From Dolichospermum sp. ST_sed8 (GTDB lineage Bacteria > Cyanobacteriota > Cyanobacteriia > Cyanobacteriales > Nostocaceae): 24,000 nucleotides of DNA. This document shows positions 1 to 9,124 of the stretch, piece by piece; position 1 is the stretch's first letter, and each line of letters opens with the position of its first letter. Below the pieces are notes generated by a model. The model did not search any database and was not told where the DNA came from. It was given only the letters and a program-made list of their open reading frames with translations. Made by a program: the position numbers and the translations under genes. Location of the stretch: NCBI GenBank assembly GCA_028658405.1, contig JAKOGY010000010.1, forward strand, positions 1,607-25,606. Direction: 5' to 3'.

Positions 1-896
1 TGATACTGTGGTCTGGTATCATTATATTGCTCATTTATTTCCAAACTAGCTACTCCTTTAAAATTACTGTTATTTTGAAGTCTATATTTGAAGTATTCTA
101 GTGACCATCTTTCAAATTTTTGCTGTTCTTCTCGGTATTCTAGCCATTTTGGTTTCCAATCTGAATCTGAGTTATTTCCTAAAAGTTTAGTTAAATGTTG
201 TGTATATGTTTCCGCAGCTTTCTGTTCTTTAGAATCTTTATAACTTGTTTTATATAATCCTGCATTACGAGCAACTGCGCGATTATGAAATAGTAGAAAT
301 AATTCGCCTTTATTTTTACTAACATAATCAGCTATAGAACAGATTTGCTCAAAAGTTACTCCTTTAACTCCAAAAGCATCTAGAAAAAATAATGTTGGAT
401 AGTTTTCTAATTCACTCATTATTTTATCCAATGCTTTATCAAATCTTTGATAATCATACACTTTATAGGATAATCCCTCACCTATTAAACTACAGTTAAT
501 ATTCAGGTTGTGGTTAAGTTCTTTATCTTCTTCAGTAAAAAAGCATCTTAAAATAACACGCTGCTCATCTCCAAATATTTTTGCTAATTTAAGAGCTATC
601 AAAGGTGAACCATCAGTATCTAAAAAATCAGTTTTATATCTGTTCCAAAAATCTGATTTATCCACAAAGTTTTCAATACCAATTCCTTCATCATATTTAC
701 CTTCTCCCGCAAAACCATCAACATAGTTCAGATATTTTGATTGAAAAGGCTTGCTACCACCTAAATTATAACAGAAAGCTTGTATATATCTCAGCATTAT
801 CCGATGTTTAGCAGCAGACCATGTTCTTTTACGTGTAAAAAATTTATTTGAATCTTTTGGTTCTTCATCAAATATAGATAATTGCGTTACTGACAT
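1..896 (-). CDS. TcmP-like protein (three-Cys-motif partner protein family), first 298 codons; 3' end runs off the window
   Basis: Absent from the ORF track because it has no stop in the window. I checked every minus-frame codon from the ATG (894..896) down to position 3 and found no stop. Translation starts MSVTQLSIFDEEPKDSNKFFTRKRTWSAAKHRIMLRYIQAF and contains YVDGFAGEGKY, DGSPLIALK and FFLDAFGVKG. These match the pattern I recall for the TcmP family (W..K...L..Y, hDGFAG, GSP, FLDxFG). Assignment is from memory only. Confidence 0.5.
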   Translation of the reverse strand, partial: MSVTQLSIFDEEPKDSNKFFTRKRTWSAAKHRIMLRYIQAFCYNLGGSKPFQSKYLNYVDGFAGEGKYDEGIGIENFVDKSDFWNRYKTDFLDTDGSPLIALKLAKIFGDEQRVILRCFFTEEDKELNHNLNINCSLIGEGLSYKVYDYQRFDKALDKIMSELENYPTLFFLDAFGVKGVTFEQICSIADYVSKNKGELFLLFHNRAVARNAGLYKTSYKDSKEQKAAETYTQHLTKLLGNNSDSDWKPKWLEYREEQQKFERWSLEYFKYRLQNNSNFKGVASLEINEQYNDTRPQY

Positions 897-1029: not shown

Positions 1030-2160
1030 TTATCTTAATGTCCGAAATATTACCCTTCCTGGATATTCTTCCTGATTAATTCTGGCATACACTCGCAAAC
1101 AAGTTAATACTTCACCAGGATTACCACCACAATCTAATTGCAAGTCATCTTTAGAAAATTCACAAACATCAGCATACAGTCCTGATAACTGTTTAATTCG
1201 AACTTCATTACCTGCTTTAATAGCTTTATCAGCGGCTTTTCTGAGAATAAGACGAGATTCTTTTTGTAATTTCCCCCACCAGGAATAACGTTCAGCAGGG
1301 GGGATAAATACTAGAGAATGGATGGCTTCATCCATGTCAATCCAAGCACATAGGTTAACAATTGTATCAGTATATTCCTCGGATTTTTGAGTTCGATGAA
1401 AGCGATCACTTAATGCATCAATATATTGATGACGTTGTTCTAATTTGGAATATAAAGAAACAATATCAAAGCTAAAAACACTTTTTAAAGCATGATGTAA
1501 ATCTGGATCTATTTCCATAAATTTAATATATAAAAGTAAAAAGCCGGCGATTAAATGTAGGTTTTCTGATAAATTATTTTGGGCAATTTCTGAATTTACC
1601 AGGGCTTTTTGAGATAAACATAGTCCTTTTGCTTTAACTGTACCACTCAACCCCGGATAAATAATTTCATCCCGCACAAATGGTAATTTATCCAGATTTC
1701 TATTATCTACAACTGCACCGACTTCCTCTGCCAATTTCAAAGCCTTTTGTCGCCAAGATGTAGCTAAATCTTCGGGAACGCGTAATAATTTTCTATGAAT
1801 TTCATTCCATATTTCCGCATCAATTTGACTTTGGATATGAGAATTACCTAAATAACAATTTAATTCAGAATCACAATTAAAGGCTTCTTTTAATTTTAAT
1901 AATTTTAATTCATTTGTTAATTTAGGTTGTTTTAGATCCCCGACTTCTTGAAGAAGTTGGGGATTTAGGGATTCTGAGGATGGTAGTTGTAATATTTGAT
2001 CAAGTTCTTGTAGAAGTTCTGCACATAAATTAAATCCAGGATCAAATGGGTATTCTTGATTGGCTTTTGTTAAAGTTGCAGCTAATCCATATAAATTAAA
2101 TCGTAATATTTTAGCTAATTCTGAGTTTTCTATGGTTAGTAATTTATGTAAGTGCTGCAT
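1030..2160 (-). CDS. hypothetical protein, 376 aa, third gene of the dynamin-like/Hsp70-like cluster
   Basis: The track ORF 1030..2406 is trimmed to the internal ATG at 2158..2160 (MQHLHKLLTIENSELAKIL...). The upstream 82 codons read through a palindromic repeat and overlap the end of the previous gene. I recognise no motifs. It has few prolines or glycines and a leucine-rich heptad-like texture, so it is probably mostly helical. Confidence 0.7.
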   Translation of the reverse strand: MQHLHKLLTIENSELAKILRFNLYGLAATLTKANQEYPFDPGFNLCAELLQELDQILQLPSSESLNPQLLQEVGDLKQPKLTNELKLLKLKEAFNCDSELNCYLGNSHIQSQIDAEIWNEIHRKLLRVPEDLATSWRQKALKLAEEVGAVVDNRNLDKLPFVRDEIIYPGLSGTVKAKGLCLSQKALVNSEIAQNNLSENLHLIAGFLLLYIKFMEIDPDLHHALKSVFSFDIVSLYSKLEQRHQYIDALSDRFHRTQKSEEYTDTIVNLCAWIDMDEAIHSLVFIPPAERYSWWGKLQKESRLILRKAADKAIKAGNEVRIKQLSGLYADVCEFSKDDLQLDCGGNPGEVLTCLRVYARINQEEYPGRVIFRTLR

Positions 2161-2188
2161 GATTTTGTGAGGATGAAAATAGAAAAAA

Positions 2189-2265
2189 GTAGGTTGGATT
2201 AAGCGACAGCGCAACCCAACACAAGAATTAATAATGTTGGGTTTCCTTATGTCAACCCAACCTAC
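2189..2265. repeat. 77-bp palindromic MITE-like small repeat (GTAGGTTGG...CCAACCTAC)
   Basis: Terminal inverted repeats are gtaggttgg / ccaacctac. An internal pair is aacccaaca / tgttgggtt. It sits exactly in the gap between two co-directional genes. It resembles the small dispersed palindromic repeats typical of Nostocales genomes. Confidence 0.6.
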
Positions 2266-2275
2266 GGAATTAAAG

Positions 2276-5200
2276 CTAATGAATACCAGAAAATGGATCA
2301 CGTTCTTTATCAACTTCATTGGGTTGTAATTCCAATTCTGCTTGATAAACACATCCTTCCTCTTGCAGACATTCTTGATTATTAGATTTCCAATAAGGAA
2401 CTGCACCAGCGTGCATTCTTAATATTCCTGTATTATCAAGAGTTACATGATATTGACAAGGATAATCTGTGATAATATCCGGTCTGCTGAGTGTACCAAT
2501 CCGGATCCATTTTTTAGTATTGGTTTCATTATCAGTTTGATAAATATAGAAGGTATGTTGACCACTTTGGGGAAATGGTGGCAATGATTTACTAATTAAT
2601 CCTGTTCCTGGTTGCTTCACACCATCCTGTAAATAATGAAATGTTTCTATTAATTTACTATCATCATTATTATCAATTGCAAATACTAAATGATAAGCAT
2701 GAGGTTGATCAACTGTTGCTGACTCTAAAACATTCACAGCAATATCACCATCATTTAAGTTGTGTTGATGGTTTTCTATAGCAATATTCCATTTTAAATT
2801 GCCATCAGCAAACAAGGTATTTTCAGCAGATTTAGATACAACTAAATTCACATCAATACCAGTTACATCTATTAAATAATGGGGATTACCTCGACATAGT
2901 AAAACACTAAATTGTAAAGCTTGATCAATCTCAAATTGAACCTTAATTTTTTTGAGAAATTCCTGTTCTTCCATTCCCAATTTATCCATCAATATTTTAC
3001 CATCAAAACTTCCCCACAGGCGAAAAGTGCCGTTTTCATAATCTTGACGATGGATAATATTAGTTAATTGTATTCCCTGCCAAGGTGTCCGCACCTTCGC
3101 AACAGTATCCCAAGGTGCAAGTTGATATAATTCTTGCCCAGCATTAAAAATAGCTAAGGGTTCGTTACTTTGAGTTTTGCGTTTGAAGTTACAAGGAAGA
3201 TAATAAAACAGGTTTTTGACATCAATTTCTAATTGATTTGCACCTTTGCGTAACAAATTTTTAGACTCTTCAGGATCAAATCGAAAGCGACGCAGTTTTT
3301 CAGCATAACAAGCACCTGCGGAAGTAGCAAGTTTGGTAAATTCTAAAACAAATGTAATTCGTTCTGAATTCCAAACAAAATAGGGTGATTGACTAAATTC
3401 TTCGTAAATTTGTTGTTGAACAAGATCAAGACTACAAGTTTTGCCAGAAAGAATTAACCAATCTACTTTTTGATTAGGTTCTGAACTTAGACGGCTTTCC
3501 ATTAGGCCCTTTGCAATACCAATTGCTTCTTTAATAGAAGACATAGCAGCCCGGTCAAATTGCTCATTATCTAAGGTTATAGAAATAGATTCAGAACTTC
3601 TCACTTGAAATTTAACAGAACTTTGGGACAGCAGTTCGCCAATTTGTTGTTCGTTTAAAGTGAAGGTTAATAAAGAACCATCTGTGGGTGGTTTTTGTCC
3701 TAATTTGAGTTTAGCAGCTTCAGCATGATCCCACAATGTGTAAAAGGTTTGCAGGCGTTGAGTTGCTTGTTGCCAACGGGTTGGTAATACTTTTTCGGCT
3801 GTATCTAGGGCATCTTTAAAGGCAACGTCACCTTCGGGATTTTCTTTATCTATACATTTTAACAAACTTCCAGTTTTAAATTTTCCATCTTCTAAAAAAC
3901 GGTCATTTAATTCGGAGTTAATTAAGTCTTCTAATTTGTCGCTTTCGATGTCACCTATAGTTACTGCGGTGAGAAGAAAATCAGAAATAGCAACTTTCAA
4001 AAGGCGGAAAATTCGTAAAGTAATTAATTCACCACCTAATTGTAAATGTCCAGAAGAACCTAATAGCTTGGGAGTAAGTTTATAGTAACGTCCTCCTAGT
4101 CCTCTATCTTCATTGTCTGCAAAGAAAGGAGTCTTATCTTCTAGGGTAAGTTCAATTAGAGCTAAGTCAGTTGTACCTCCACCAATATCTAAAACCAGGA
4201 CATTTTGTGACCATTTGTTCCCATTTTGATGACAGCGAGTTTTAAAAGATTCAATACCGATATTGAGATTACCGCCAAATTCTCGCCAAAGGAAAAATAT
4301 CGCTACAGAAACAGCTTCGTCATAGGCTGTCTGCACATCATCAATTCCTAATTCCTGTACTAGGTTCTTAATTTCTTTTCTCACTACAGGAGGGGCAACG
4401 GTGGGATAGGTAACAACTGCTGTGAGAAAATCGCCTTCAGAAAATCTGCGTCTACCCCGTTGACGATAATCTTCTGTTAATTCAATTAATTGCGCCCAAG
4501 CTGCTTGAATTAAGTGATTAACTTGAATATTTTCTTCATCTTCTTCTAAGATAATAGGGAAAGAGCGATTTTGTCCAAAATAGCGTTTGGGTGAATGGTG
4601 GAATCTGCTAATAATTTCTTTGACAGAAACAGTTGTTCCTTGGGCTATGGCTTTTTTTCTATTATCTCTGGCATCTCTACCCATGCGGAGTTTTAATGGG
4701 ATTAATTGCGAGACTTCCATTTCGCTGGGAATTTCTGTACTGCGTCTGTCAATATCTAAAACTACGGGAATTAAATTTTGTGATTCTAATGTGGGAACGC
4801 GAAACACTTCATGATATATAGCATAAAGTTTTTTGCTAACAGCCCGCCGAAATCTATCACTTGTTCCTAAACATAATTCAATTTGCCGAATTGCTTCTAA
4901 AAATAATTCTTTGTTATCACTTTCAAAAATTTCACTTAATTGTTCTGATTCTATTTCTAAGTTTTTGCTAATATCAGCCAGAAATTTTTCCCACTCACCA
5001 CTACTAACATCTGGTAAGGCTAAATCTGGTACTGAACTGAGCCATTCAGCCATGCGTTCTCTTAATCTCAATTCTTGTTCTCTGGGTAAAACTTCGGCAA
5101 TGGGGACTTCAATGGGATCAAAAAGTGTCACTGTAGAGTTAGAAGTACCAAAATCTAAAGCTAACCAACCAGGAAATCTTTTTCTTTGTTTTTCGTTGAG

Positions 5201-5692
5201 TTTTTCACTGAGTTGTTGACTTAAATTATTTAGATAGGTGTCAAATTGCGAAGTATTCATGGCTGGATAATTTTTTGTAGATGACTTTGATGGTTTTTCT
5301 AAATTGGGTATAAACCAAAGATCACATTCAGCACATACATGATTAGATATAGACAAATGTGGTTTTCCCTCAGCGTCAGAGTCAAAATATTCGATAATTA
5401 CTTTTAAAGTACAATCAACTATTGTAATTAAAGGTGAATCTAACTGACAGGGATTTTGTCCTAATTGACAAATAGTAGAAATCTTTTTGGGTGTGGCTGA
5501 GTCAAGTTGTCTATAACTGCTTTGAATTTGTGCTGCTAATTGATATGGTGTACCTCTAACTATGCAGGTAATCCGAGAAATATGGGGAATGTTGCTGTTA
5601 ATAGGGACAATTTGAATGGTGGGTAGATGCAACTGTGTGTTTTCTTTGATACCTAATTTAAAGCTAGGTAAAAGCTGAATTTCCACAGGCAT
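2276..5692 (-). CDS. large Hsp70/actin-fold ATPase-like protein (1138 aa) with non-canonical N- and C-terminal domains
   Basis: Phosphate-1 motif is LALDFGTSNSTV (DFGTSNS at 5135..5155). AVVTYPTVAPPVVRKE aligns with DnaK AVITVPAYFND. AYDEAVSVAIFF aligns with IINEPTAAALAY. Phosphate-2 motif is VLVLDIGGGTTDLALIE (4166..4189). GHLQLGGELITLRIF aligns with GDTHLGGEDFD. DWLILSGKTCSLDLVQQQI aligns with VILVGGSTRIP.VQ. AAGGA lies 9 nt upstream of the ATG at 5692. Confidence 0.85.
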   Translation of the reverse strand: MPVEIQLLPSFKLGIKENTQLHLPTIQIVPINSNIPHISRITCIVRGTPYQLAAQIQSSYRQLDSATPKKISTICQLGQNPCQLDSPLITIVDCTLKVIIEYFDSDAEGKPHLSISNHVCAECDLWFIPNLEKPSKSSTKNYPAMNTSQFDTYLNNLSQQLSEKLNEKQRKRFPGWLALDFGTSNSTVTLFDPIEVPIAEVLPREQELRLRERMAEWLSSVPDLALPDVSSGEWEKFLADISKNLEIESEQLSEIFESDNKELFLEAIRQIELCLGTSDRFRRAVSKKLYAIYHEVFRVPTLESQNLIPVVLDIDRRSTEIPSEMEVSQLIPLKLRMGRDARDNRKKAIAQGTTVSVKEIISRFHHSPKRYFGQNRSFPIILEEDEENIQVNHLIQAAWAQLIELTEDYRQRGRRRFSEGDFLTAVVTYPTVAPPVVRKEIKNLVQELGIDDVQTAYDEAVSVAIFFLWREFGGNLNIGIESFKTRCHQNGNKWSQNVLVLDIGGGTTDLALIELTLEDKTPFFADNEDRGLGGRYYKLTPKLLGSSGHLQLGGELITLRIFRLLKVAISDFLLTAVTIGDIESDKLEDLINSELNDRFLEDGKFKTGSLLKCIDKENPEGDVAFKDALDTAEKVLPTRWQQATQRLQTFYTLWDHAEAAKLKLGQKPPTDGSLLTFTLNEQQIGELLSQSSVKFQVRSSESISITLDNEQFDRAAMSSIKEAIGIAKGLMESRLSSEPNQKVDWLILSGKTCSLDLVQQQIYEEFSQSPYFVWNSERITFVLEFTKLATSAGACYAEKLRRFRFDPEESKNLLRKGANQLEIDVKNLFYYLPCNFKRKTQSNEPLAIFNAGQELYQLAPWDTVAKVRTPWQGIQLTNIIHRQDYENGTFRLWGSFDGKILMDKLGMEEQEFLKKIKVQFEIDQALQFSVLLCRGNPHYLIDVTGIDVNLVVSKSAENTLFADGNLKWNIAIENHQHNLNDGDIAVNVLESATVDQPHAYHLVFAIDNNDDSKLIETFHYLQDGVKQPGTGLISKSLPPFPQSGQHTFYIYQTDNETNTKKWIRIGTLSRPDIITDYPCQYHVTLDNTGILRMHAGAVPYWKSNNQECLQEEGCVYQAELELQPNEVDKERDPFSGIH

Positions 5693-5827: not shown

Positions 5828-8386
5828 TTAAATATAGCTGAATAGTTCGGCTTCATTAATTGTGGCAATATCGGTTAAAATTTCTAACCAAGCAGGAATG
5901 GCTAATTCAGCTTGTGAATCTCTAGCAGCAATATATCTGAGTAGTGTTTCTTTTTTGGCAAGGTTTTGCAAACTGGGAATTATTTGATCTAAAATTCCAT
6001 TGATTTCTATATTTACTTGTTGATTGCTTTCACTTACATACTGGACAAGGTGAAGACTAGCACTAGCGGTAATTTCATCTCGCAGTCGGAGGACGAAAAG
6101 TTGATGATTCGTGCTTCTAGATGGGTTTTGATTTCTTTCGGGAGACCAATCAAAAATTTGCCCTATACTATGTTTTTCATCTTGTTTAGCTAGAGGAAAA
6201 ATACTTTCTGGTTTGATACTTTGATCATGGTTATTGATTTCGGCAATTATGGCTTCTTTCCACTGACGAGGATCACATCCTAATAACAGTTTATAAAATA
6301 AGTCGGCTTCTTCAAGTCCAAATTTTTCTTCAATTTCTTGTTCCATTTCTGGCTGAAGAATGGCTTGCAGTTTTTCCCGTTCTAATGTGATTTGATGTGC
6401 CATTGAGCTTAATAAGTCTATCACGGCTTGACGAATGCGATCGCTCGCAAAGGTTTCCAATTCTTTGACTGTTTTCTCAAAGGCTGGATAAAAGTCATCA
6501 CTCTTAGTTGGTAAGGAGGTATTTACCCGATTTCCTCTATCAAATAATTTCCCTGCTGCACCTTTAAATTCTGCTAAGGTAATTGTGCCATTTTGGACTT
6601 TATTAAATAGTAATGTCCATTGACTCCAATTTAAAATTCTCAATGTTAGTTCATCTTTAATGACATCACTAACTACAATTCCTCTCCGATCTTTTAGTTG
6701 TTCTTTCCCTAAACCTTTTTGGAAGTTTCTATAGATTTTATCTAAACTTTCTATGGCTAATCGCAGTTCCATTAACGCCGGAGTATCAACTGTGGGTATG
6801 CCTTGTTCATGAATTTCGGCAATAATCTCTTTGAGATATTCTTGTTGTTGACGAATTACATCAGCAGCCCGACGGCTATCTTCATACAATTGTTTTAACC
6901 CGTGATTAGCAACATGAGTTTGAATTAATTCTCTTAATTTACTAATACCGCCATCTTGGGCAAAATAACCTAATTGTTTTCCTAATTGATTTCGTCCATC
7001 TACTGCTAATAAACCTTCGCTTAAATCACCCCATTTCTGTTGTAGTTTCTTTGGTCTTTCCAAATAATCAGGATAATCTAAATTGGCGAGAAATTCCTCA
7101 GAACCAGCTTTCACTTGACTAGAACGTTTAGCCAATTCAGCTAATCCTAACAGGGGTGATAATAAAACAATTCTGTCTTTTTGAGAAGTGAATGCTTCAG
7201 CCCCATCAATAATGGTTTTGAGAACTTTCAATTTTTGGAAAACTGTATTTGTTTGTAAAGGTTGAAGATTAGATTGATTAGCAATTAATAAATCTAGTTC
7301 CCTTTCCCCACCTTCACTTTCTAAAGGTAGTTGATCAAAACGTCCCACACCTACAAGAATTAAGTCTTTTAGGTCTTGTCCAGGGCGTTTTTGCTGCATC
7401 ATTGTGAAAATTTTATTGGCGCGATCGCTCCCTGGCGATTTACCATTAAGTAAGACTAAAATTGTCTGTACCTGTGTCAATTCTCGCAATGATAAAAATG
7501 TATCTCTAGTTCCAGAATTAGCCGCACCCAAACCGGGAAAATCTAACAGGACAAATTCTTCTGCACCTGTCACATCCCAAATTTCTCTTGATATTTTCAC
7601 TTCAATATCAACGCGACGAATTAAGAGAAAACTAGTTTGTAATAATTGCGTCCCTAATCTTTGTGGCGCGTTTGGTAAGCGAATAGGTGCTGCTGGTAAA
7701 TCCTCAAATTTGAGAGATTGAATCGCCATGGGCATTTCTGCCAGTTGTAAACCTTCACGGGCGGTGATAGCATCAATTTGGTAAAAGCGACCGCATAAAG
7801 CCTCACCATAAGCCTGATAAGCCCGCAAAAATGACAATAACTCCCGCACCAAATAACGCAACTCTAAATTATTTGAGCTTTTCCAAACTTCCTCACACCA
7901 AATACTGATATCTTTACCAGTTTTAATTTTAACTACCTGTAAAGGTGTCACCCCAGCAGACGTAGCGCGACGGTTTGCTTCTTTGAGCATGAAGTGTAAG
8001 CACTCATTCACCCCTTCGTGGGATAAATATTCTACCGTATAATTATTTACTTGGGTAGTTGCAAAACCATCTTGAGGTTTAACATGAATAGCTGTGACAT
8101 TACCAGTTGTCGGATTTTCACTCACTGGTAAAGCGTCCGCATAACCAATCAGACTTCCTAGCAACAAACTTTTACCGCTGCTAAATTCCCCCATTACGCC
8201 GATTTTCACCGGTGAGGTTGCCAGTTTTACCGTGTTTTCAGCCGCTTCTCGTAACCGCAACAAACAATCATCCAGACTAGTGGGAACCCAATCTTCCTCC
8301 TGGGAAGGGCGTTGGGGTACTGAGTCAATTTTGCGGAGGATAAATTCACCGTACTCTTTCAATCGTGCCAGCTTATCTGGTTCCAT
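5828..8386 (-). CDS. dynamin-family (bacterial dynamin-like) GTPase, 852 aa
   Basis: G1 P-loop is GVMGEFSSGKSLLLGSL (GEFSSGKS at 8168..8191). G2 candidate threonines lie in NPTTGNVTAI. G3 is LLDFPGLG (DFPG at 7532..7543). The G4-like motif is LVGVGRFDQL (GRFD at 7334..7345). A long C-terminal region of about 500 aa follows, as in dynamin-like stalk/paddle regions; its likely helical nature is a guess from composition. Confidence 0.8.
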   Translation of the reverse strand: MEPDKLARLKEYGEFILRKIDSVPQRPSQEEDWVPTSLDDCLLRLREAAENTVKLATSPVKIGVMGEFSSGKSLLLGSLIGYADALPVSENPTTGNVTAIHVKPQDGFATTQVNNYTVEYLSHEGVNECLHFMLKEANRRATSAGVTPLQVVKIKTGKDISIWCEEVWKSSNNLELRYLVRELLSFLRAYQAYGEALCGRFYQIDAITAREGLQLAEMPMAIQSLKFEDLPAAPIRLPNAPQRLGTQLLQTSFLLIRRVDIEVKISREIWDVTGAEEFVLLDFPGLGAANSGTRDTFLSLRELTQVQTILVLLNGKSPGSDRANKIFTMMQQKRPGQDLKDLILVGVGRFDQLPLESEGGERELDLLIANQSNLQPLQTNTVFQKLKVLKTIIDGAEAFTSQKDRIVLLSPLLGLAELAKRSSQVKAGSEEFLANLDYPDYLERPKKLQQKWGDLSEGLLAVDGRNQLGKQLGYFAQDGGISKLRELIQTHVANHGLKQLYEDSRRAADVIRQQQEYLKEIIAEIHEQGIPTVDTPALMELRLAIESLDKIYRNFQKGLGKEQLKDRRGIVVSDVIKDELTLRILNWSQWTLLFNKVQNGTITLAEFKGAAGKLFDRGNRVNTSLPTKSDDFYPAFEKTVKELETFASDRIRQAVIDLLSSMAHQITLEREKLQAILQPEMEQEIEEKFGLEEADLFYKLLLGCDPRQWKEAIIAEINNHDQSIKPESIFPLAKQDEKHSIGQIFDWSPERNQNPSRSTNHQLFVLRLRDEITASASLHLVQYVSESNQQVNIEINGILDQIIPSLQNLAKKETLLRYIAARDSQAELAIPAWLEILTDIATINEAELFSYI

Positions 8387-8507: not shown

Positions 8508-8876
8508 CTAATCTTTATCTAAAGCTATTTCTTTTGGTTCTGTTATCATAGCTACACCTGCTAAAATTTGTCTAATTCTTTCTTGAGATAGCTTACCTAT
8601 TTTTTCAGTTAATAAGGCTTTATCTACTGTAAAAAGTTGCGATACATTTACTACACTTTGTCTATCAAGATTAGCTTCTCCTAACTCTAGTAAAACATTA
8701 CCCATTGCCTTAGCTCGTCGCAAATTAGAAGTTAATGCACAAACTATGACTGTTCTGATTTGAGAACTGTTGAGCAAATCATTTTGGATTACCACATAAG
8801 GACGGAGATAAGCTGGTTCTGAACCTATTGGTTCTCCCAAATCAATCCAATAAATATCACCTTGCTTAATTACCAT
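8508..8876 (-). CDS. mazF: type II toxin, MazF/PemK family endoribonuclease
   Basis: MVIKQGDIYWIDLGEPIGSEPAYLRPYVVIQND...VIVCALTSN is the typical PemK/MazF N-terminal signature. Its ATG overlaps the stop of the upstream antitoxin gene (8870..8876). Confidence 0.85.
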   Translation of the reverse strand: MVIKQGDIYWIDLGEPIGSEPAYLRPYVVIQNDLLNSSQIRTVIVCALTSNLRRAKAMGNVLLELGEANLDRQSVVNVSQLFTVDKALLTEKIGKLSQERIRQILAGVAMITEPKEIALDKD

Positions 8877-9124
8877 TCTTTTGCTTGTAATTTTCCTTGG
8901 TGGTGTCGCATTGCTTCTAACATGATTTGTTCTGATTCATCTAAATCATCTGCATAAGCTTCATTAATACTTTCTAGCAATTGACGATGTTTTTTATGAC
9001 GCAAAAATTCTGCCATTGCTATAGCAAATAATTTACTCCGAGGAATTTTCATTTCATTCGCTAAAGCGTTGACTTCCTCATAAAGCGATTCTTCAATGGA
9101 GATAGCCGTTTTGATACTGGTCAT
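8870..9124 (-). CDS. ribbon-helix-helix (CopG/MazE-like) antitoxin
   Basis: 84 aa. N-terminal KTAISIEESLYEEVNALANEMKIPRSKLFAIAMAEFL fits a strand-helix-helix RHH pattern. The C-terminus is acidic. It is translationally coupled to the MazF/PemK gene. Confidence 0.75.
   Translation of the reverse strand: MTSIKTAISIEESLYEEVNALANEMKIPRSKLFAIAMAEFLRHKKHRQLLESINEAYADDLDESEQIMLEAMRHHQGKLQAKEW

Follow-up and report, generated by a model that had tools for sequence, protein, structure and literature searches.

A diverged giant Hsp70-family ATPase encoded with a dynamin-like GTPase and a third conserved protein in Nostocaceae and other bacteria

Introduction

Few molecular machines are understood as well as the Hsp70s, nearly all known examples of which have a single architecture. 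Here, we describe a diverged family member encoded on the minus strand at positions 2276–5692 of a 24,000-nt stretch of Dolichospermum sp. ST_sed8 (family Nostocaceae; positions 1,607–25,606 of contig JAKOGY010000010.1, assembly GCA_028658405.1), referred to below as the window. This giant ATPase and its relatives appear to keep the core of ATPase domain, linker and clamp, with the lid swapped for another domain, both lobes of the nucleotide cleft enlarged and a tethered N-terminal domain added, and in three phyla their genes are linked to that of a dynamin-like GTPase. On balance, the evidence points to a conserved, soluble module of three proteins, in which this ATPase may work as a dedicated-client Hsp70 machine.

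Among the closest described systems is the 'chaperone clade' of cyanobacterial dynamin-like proteins, which Jilly et al. 2018 (Front Plant Sci 9:206, PMC5827413) defined by a downstream gene with a DnaK domain, speculating about protein sorting during membrane remodelling. The window carries the same pair, a GTPase gene followed by a DnaK-domain gene, and fits that definition (Dynamin_N match of 5e-9, 135-nt gap to the ATPase gene, 8 Nostocales loci); the pairing was already noted in 2018. The passages of that paper that deal with the clade report adjacency only, and the third gene, homologues outside Cyanobacteria, a domain analysis of the Hsp70-like protein and experiments do not figure in them.

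Two further systems invite comparison. The srfABC genes of Salmonella, Xenorhabdus and Erwinia encode SrfB (PF07520), an Hsp70/actin-fold protein of approximately 1000 amino acids (aa), together with a P-loop GTPase-like neighbour and a third protein. The cytotoxicity of SrfABC is known from Xenorhabdus assays (PMC6950479), and in the model of a 2026 preprint, SrfA serves as a membrane platform for the binding of SrfB, followed by that of SrfC. The DO-GTPase/GAP1 conflict systems described by Kaur et al. 2020 contain a canonical Hsp70, GrpE and a DnaJ-fused FNIII protein.

Architecture of the ATPase

The gene and the parts of its product, including the nucleotide-binding domain (NBD) and a region resembling the beta-sandwich of the Hsp70 substrate-binding domain (SBD), are as follows (pLDDT, predicted local distance difference test):

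2276..5692, minus strand: ATPase gene, complete open reading frame of 1138 aa plus stop; giant Hsp70-family ATPase, named 'virulence factor SrfB' or 'molecular chaperone' elsewhere
3287..5176, minus strand: expanded Hsp70-type NBD, residues 173–802, with D180, K369, E459, D502, T507/T508 and G750 (hhalign to the genome's own DnaK, Foldseek, invariant columns)
4802..5083, minus strand: predicted six-helix insertion, residues 204–297, between phosphate-1 and the catalytic Lys in lobe I (secondary structure of the model, D180–K369 spacing)
3701..4033, minus strand: predicted helical expansion of subdomain IIB, residues 554–664 (model; gaps opposite DnaK in the hhalign alignment)
2852..3286, minus strand: conserved linker (G817, N827, L832, P833, F836) and SBD-beta-like sandwich, residues ~803–947 (Foldseek, invariant columns, 59% median identity)
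2279..2851, minus strand: C-terminal beta-rich domain, residues ~948–1138, ending in DPFSGIH (model and alignment; no fold match)
5303..5692, minus strand: N-domain, residues 1–130, mostly beta with one helix (50–59), family-specific and absent in the Nostoc clade (AlphaFold2 pLDDT ~76–89, jackhmmer)
5177..5302, minus strand: disordered tether, residues 131–172, containing Met145 (pLDDT <50 for 131–169, median identity 14%)

Translation of the minus strand gives a single open frame of 1138 codons, with a ribosome-binding-like AAAGGAA shortly 5' of the ATG at 5692. A plus-strand reading of the same interval was rejected, since it is interrupted by stops throughout. The full-length AlphaFold2 model, built from an alignment of 54 sequences with 30–94% identity, reached a pLDDT of 85 and a predicted template-modelling score (pTM) of 0.77, and is divided into five parts with a largely beta C-terminal third.

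The NBD is of the Hsp70 type and its catalytic residues are intact. When a 39-member family profile was compared by hhalign with the genome's own DnaK, it aligned with 98% probability over 280 columns, all within the NBD. K369 and E459 fell on the catalytic Lys and Glu, DIGGGTTD opposite DLGGGTFD, and LSGKT opposite the adenosine motif. D180, K369, E459, D502 and G750 are invariant among the 39 sequences, whose identity goes down to 24%. Foldseek against the PDB ranked SBD-containing Hsp70s first (ATP-state DnaK and BiP, E = 4e-16 to 1e-14, ~660 columns), with NBD-only Hsp70 entries lower (E ~4e-12 to 4e-11, ~490–540 columns). Searches by sequence gave far less: a PDB search with the whole protein returned the phosphate-2 motif only (E = 0.27), and an NCBIfam scan returned only PRK11678, at 15 bits versus a cut-off of 331.

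The spacing between D180 and K369 is 189 residues. In E. coli DnaK numbering, approximately 62 residues separate the equivalent Asp and Lys. Compared with canonical Hsp70s (DnaK, BiP and Hsc70), with which it shares the NBD fold, the catalytic residues and, probably, an SBD-beta-like sandwich behind a conserved linker, the protein has ~125 extra aa in lobe I and ~95 in IIB, the latter forming the helices at 554–664, as well as an N-terminal domain and tether of ~170 aa; overall identity is ~13%. We read the ATPase as a separate branch of the Hsp70 family that has diverged deeply and in which both upper lobes of the NBD are enlarged.

A first-pass annotation, made from the sequence alone, had proposed an Hsp70-fold ATPase whose expanded NBD contains a large insertion, and the hhalign and Foldseek matches, the D180–K369 spacing and the two sets of extra helices bear this out. 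A scripted motif check agreed with its placing of phosphate-1 (DFGTSNS) at residue 180 and found TYPT at residue 428, 248 residues further on, where ~240 had been estimated. Phosphate-2 (DIGGGTTD) lies at residue 502. DWLILSGKTCS, put at about residue 770 in that annotation, actually starts at 744.

The catalytic motifs, the SBD-like domain and the 'molecular chaperone' annotation of homologues would also suit an ordinary folding chaperone, a fourth DnaK paralogue with decorative extensions. We regard this as scarcely credible. The Pfam HSP70 profile (PF00012) scores only 13.7 bits, under its gathering cut-off of 20.6, the lid and the EEVD tail are lacking, the module contains neither dnaJ nor grpE, and the gene is strictly linked to that of a dynamin-like GTPase in three phyla. 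In addition, three canonical full-length DnaKs are encoded elsewhere in the same genome, which argues that the giant ATPase is not the housekeeping chaperone.

Linker, SBD-like sandwich and C-terminal domain

Residues 803–1138, modelled separately, gave a pLDDT of 84.9 and a pTM of 0.81. With this model, the high-probability Foldseek matches in the PDB were Hsp70 SBDs only (4jnf, 4r5k, 6jpv, 7kzu and 1dky), of which 4jnf matched with a probability of 1.0 and a root-mean-square deviation of 3.8 A over 110 columns. Independently, BFVD returned closterovirus HSP70h and giant-virus DnaK. Across both databases, the SBD matches had probabilities of 0.85–1.0 over 107–146 columns, with weak E-values of 0.008–0.2. 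The sandwich was placed at ~820–947 by its strand pattern, the domain boundaries being inferred from secondary structure, not from the Foldseek ranges. Just ahead of it, L814, G817, N827, L832 and P833 are invariant and F836 nearly so in the 54 sequences. This L814–F836 segment is among the best-conserved outside the NBD and occupies the position expected for the Hsp70 interdomain linker, and the SBD-like region as a whole is conserved as strongly as the NBD. Residues ~803–947 of the model are therefore likely to form an SBD-beta-like clamp behind a conserved linker.

The remaining ~190 residues are mostly beta, with neither a helical lid nor an EEVD tail in the model or the sequence. They end in DPFxGxH, of which P1133, F1134, G1136 and H1138 are invariant in the same 54 sequences. 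Foldseek with the C-terminal model found no fold match for residues ~948–1138, and none of the PDB sequence matches to the last 198 residues was significant (E >= 0.18). According to the model, it is probably only the lid and the EEVD tail that have been replaced, by a beta-rich domain of ~190 aa.

The first-pass annotation had described all 340 C-terminal residues as non-Hsp70 sequence, with no DnaK-type beta-sandwich, lid or EEVD tail. The absence of the lid and the tail holds, the protein ending in a beta domain with the C-terminal DPFSGIH, and so does the lack of resemblance for the last ~190 residues. The denial of a sandwich is probably wrong, given that residues 803–1138 match Hsp70 SBDs in two databases, and the first ~145 of these residues resemble a diverged SBD-beta. 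The same stretch had been called Asn/Gln/Tyr/Trp-rich: enrichment is present but mild (Asn/Gln 13.8–14.7% versus ~11% in the whole protein, Tyr/Trp 5.5–5.8% versus ~4%), and the predicted fold speaks against low complexity, the region being modelled as folded and beta-rich.

In closterovirus HSP70h, likewise a diverged Hsp70, an SBD-like fold is all that remains in the C-terminal part; the resemblance is structural only. HSP70h serves dedicated assembly or movement rather than general folding. It differs from the ATPase in being viral and ~600 aa long, without an N-domain or a dynamin partner.

N-terminal domain and tether

The N-terminal 145 residues contain 12.4% Ile and 6 Cys, and AlphaFold2 predicts them to be mostly beta, in line with the Cys- and Ile/Val-rich, beta-rich look ascribed to them earlier. 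Jackhmmer found the N-domain in at least 32 of 93 representative clusters, in a search limited to N-terminal pieces, and some carriers have a second module of ~130 aa inserted behind it. An N-domain profile gave only non-significant matches (E >= 0.18) to PDB sequences. Met145 is the sole internal Met within residues 1–200, and translation from it was considered as an alternative. It was rejected for this gene because the N-domain is conserved and confidently folded in the model; the extension seen in the first pass is therefore genuine.

A start at this point does hold for the Nostoc clade, whose proteins of 985–991 aa lack the N-domain and begin at the equivalent of Met145 (loci L003, L006, L008 and L011). 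The upstream frame in Nostoc commune closes 12 codons before this Met, the gap between GTPase and ATPase genes falls to 76 nt in one Nostoc locus, and six-frame matches across whole genomes of the clade begin at residues 138–202. In N. commune NIES-4072, the 719-nt gap to the GTPase gene carries a fragment of a DUF2887-type gene (L003:9282–10000).

In the comparison that the first pass had suggested, the terminal domains have changed more quickly than the core, with median identities to the query of 45% for the N-domain and 47% for the C-domain versus 60% for the NBD and 59% for the SBD-like region; the tether stands at 14%. From phosphate-1 to the C-terminus, homologues have a near-constant 926–997 residues, versus 27–582 for the N-terminal part. 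A Pfam scan of 14 homologues, most with long N-terminal extensions, identified a TIR domain in one and nothing beyond weak ATPase-core matches in the other 13. This protein (P0143 of the representative library, 1549 aa) carries an N-terminal TIR_2 domain (4e-21) ~450 residues ahead of the conserved core, and is the sole recognisable effector-type fusion among those scanned. The faster-evolving terminal domains, the loss of the N-domain in Nostoc and the TIR domain at the N-terminus of a homologue fit a role of the terminal domains as specificity or adaptor modules.

A conserved three-gene module

The ATPase gene is flanked on the same strand by two partners:

5828..8386, minus strand: upstream partner, 852-aa dynamin-like GTPase of the 'chaperone clade' (cBDLP; Dynamin_N 5e-9, conserved neighbour)
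1030..2160, minus strand: downstream partner, 376-aa protein without a family match (conserved neighbour, orthologues of 363–405 aa)

All three genes are on the minus strand, separated by 135 nt (GTPase–ATPase) and 115 nt (ATPase–third gene). The open reading frame called for the third gene starts at a GTG at 2406, inside the ATPase gene with an overlap of 131 nt; the true start is probably the ATG at 2160. The three genes are adjacent and in the same order in seven of eight Nostocales loci. In the eighth, from Scytonema HK-05, the order is kept and a 6.1-kb insertion lies between the GTPase and ATPase genes. This gene order recurs in a Gemmatales genome, two metagenome contigs and Micromonospora carbonacea, and both the GTPase and the third protein were recognised by profile search in every one of these loci. 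The module is thus conserved across Cyanobacteria, Planctomycetes and Actinobacteria. No transmembrane helix was predicted in any of its three proteins.

A trio with a large Hsp70/actin-fold protein at its centre recalls SrfABC, and the module could be read as a rearranged SrfABC 'toxin/virulence' system with a true SrfB. Many homologues are named 'virulence factor SrfB' in NCBI and UniRef, Pfam SrfB is the best family match of the ATPase, the three protein sizes resemble those of SrfC, SrfB and SrfA (PMC6950479), and SrfC resembles the GTPase in size and in having a P-loop, with a G1 region that aligns. Moreover, ~155 columns of the ATPase around TYPT and phosphate-2 align with Erwinia/Brenneria SrfB in hhalign, at 96.6%, the region from TYPT to DIGGGTTD being common to both. 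However, the Pfam match is below threshold (22.4 versus 27.1 bits) and covers residues 450–519 and 70 of the 992 profile positions, whereas a true Erwinia/Brenneria SrfB scores 1297 bits on PF07520, and DnaK aligns over 280 columns compared with 155 for SrfB. The two also differ in phosphate-1 context, in their N- and C-terminal regions and in gene order, which is reversed. The partners fare no better: the GTPase reaches 43% against SrfC, over the P-loop alone, a search of the module with PF10139 (SrfC) gave no match, and the third protein shows no similarity to SrfA (probability 0.1%) and has no transmembrane helix, leaving this module without a membrane-anchored component. The hosts are free-living phototrophs. 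On its sequence, the ATPase falls outside the SrfB family, and we consider an SrfABC origin of the module very improbable. Since homology is detectable over only ~155 columns, the name 'virulence factor SrfB' overstates the relationship, and it is misleading for free-living phototrophs.

Identity with the DO-GTPase/tubulin/Hsp70 systems of Kaur et al. 2020 was also considered and rejected, by comparison with their published description. Those systems use a canonical Hsp70 with GrpE, and the module shows no sign of GrpE, DnaJ, FNIII or a zinc-ribbon GTPase, which makes it a different system.

Distribution and a possible role in conflict

An exhaustive search of 1.84 billion representatives retrieved 428 clusters at E <= 1e-3, nearly all aligned from about residue 170 to the C-terminus, and a scan of genome contigs with back-translated motifs found at least 13 loci. 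A second profile search, for distant relatives, mostly recovered the same cyanobacterial proteins. In a sample of 301 cyanobacterial genomes (E <= 1e-20), the ATPase gene was present in 33 of the 34 genomes of Nostocaceae, the family of the window, and in none of 266 others; it occupies a single place in 32 of these 33. Named homologues also occur in Oscillatoria, Kamptonema, Okeania and related filamentous genera. Flanking genes are common to Trichormus and Nostoc commune, and identity of the ATPase across genera is 75–80%. Among Micromonosporaceae, 6 of 101 genomes carry the gene.

These data bear on whether the trio is an anti-phage or conflict module, in which the GTPase and the ATPase would act as switches of the sensor or threshold type, with the variable N-terminal module of the ATPase as effector or adaptor, comparable to the NTPase-centred systems of multicellular bacteria (Kaur et al. 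2020). Such a role would account for the TIR domain ahead of the same core in P0143, for an N-domain that is variable or lost and for the patchy occurrence in Micromonosporaceae. The named hosts are all filamentous or multicellular, and neighbours in other loci include a large Ser/Thr-kinase protein, a vWA and tubulin-like pair and, inserted in Scytonema, an NB-ARC–TPR gene; in the window, the module stands beside mazEF-type toxin–antitoxin genes and a TcmP gene. Nevertheless, neither the ATPase nor the third protein matches any model in PADLOC-DB 2.0, where the GTPase has only a sub-threshold LeoA match over the P-loop (E = 1.7e-4), and the ATPase is likewise without a match in PHROGs. The cyanobacterial module encodes no effector of the nuclease, pore or NADase kind, and a TIR domain was identified in one of the 14 homologues scanned. 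Presence in nearly all Nostocaceae genomes, in one place in all but one, together with the common flanks and high cross-genus identity, is what a core gene passed on vertically would show, and not a gene in an arms race. A role in defence still draws some support from the TIR fusion, the patchy distribution in Actinobacteria and the conflict-type neighbours, although we judge it rather unlikely. The near-universality, conserved flanks and high conservation within Nostocaceae favour a cell-biological function instead.

Proposed function of the module

We thus lean, with a modest degree of confidence, towards a soluble module in which the giant ATPase is an Hsp70 machine with a dedicated client. 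ATP binding and hydrolysis would dock and undock the beta-sandwich as in DnaK, and the sandwich would clamp a segment of a single client, either the co-encoded GTPase or the third protein. In doing so, the ATPase may assemble, disassemble or position a GTPase assembly rather than take part in general folding, with the terminal domains presumably conferring specificity for a partner or a site.

Several observations weigh against this proposal. The link between the ATPase and the GTPase is one of gene adjacency, and no J-domain or GrpE-like gene lies within the module, another difference from canonical Hsp70 systems. The SBD assignment comes from predicted models with weak Foldseek E-values, and hhalign against DnaK gave no sequence-profile signal for an SBD. 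Furthermore, given its absence in Nostoc, the N-domain cannot be essential to the core mechanism.

A more specific version, in which the SBD-like clamp of a lid-less Hsp70 would load, disassemble or recycle polymers of the dynamin-like GTPase, seems distinctly unlikely as it stands. It would make the module a prokaryotic counterpart of the Hsc70-driven disassembly of membrane coats, near-universal in heterocyst-forming cyanobacteria and conceivably serving the maintenance of thylakoid, septum or envelope; we regard this extension, too, as speculative and hold it with equal reserve. Given that the ATPase gene is present in nearly every heterocystous cyanobacterium searched, genetically tractable laboratory strains included, two questions become testable: how an Hsp70 serves a bacterial dynamin, and what function the bacterial dynamins of the chaperone clade have at all.

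Neighbouring genes

In the window, the module is followed on the same strand by a TcmP-family gene (positions 3–896, minus strand; TIGR04474, 3e-27; PADLOC candidate PDC-M41A, 1e-8) and preceded, also on the same strand, by a ribbon-helix-helix (RHH) antitoxin/MazF toxin pair (8508–9124, minus strand). In Micromonospora carbonacea, genes for a vWA-domain protein and a 1033-aa Tubulin_2 protein (FtsZ-like 1) lie directly downstream of the trio (L012:12273–16902), a vWA/FtsZl1 pairing reportedly described by Makarova and Koonin in 2010. Both metagenome contigs encode a Ser/Thr kinase-domain protein of ~965 aa just downstream of the trio (L020:9524–12421 and L021:12994–15903), directly and on the same strand in L021, one gene further and on the opposite strand in L020. 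The 6.1-kb insertion of Scytonema sp. HK-05 contains a gene on the opposite strand for a 1108-aa NB-ARC and TPR protein of the STAND type (L010:2578–5904). Finally, the 115 nt that separate the third gene from the ATPase gene (window positions 2161–2275) contain inverted repeats of the GGTTGGGTT / AACCCAAC type, which resemble small interspersed repeats of Nostocales.

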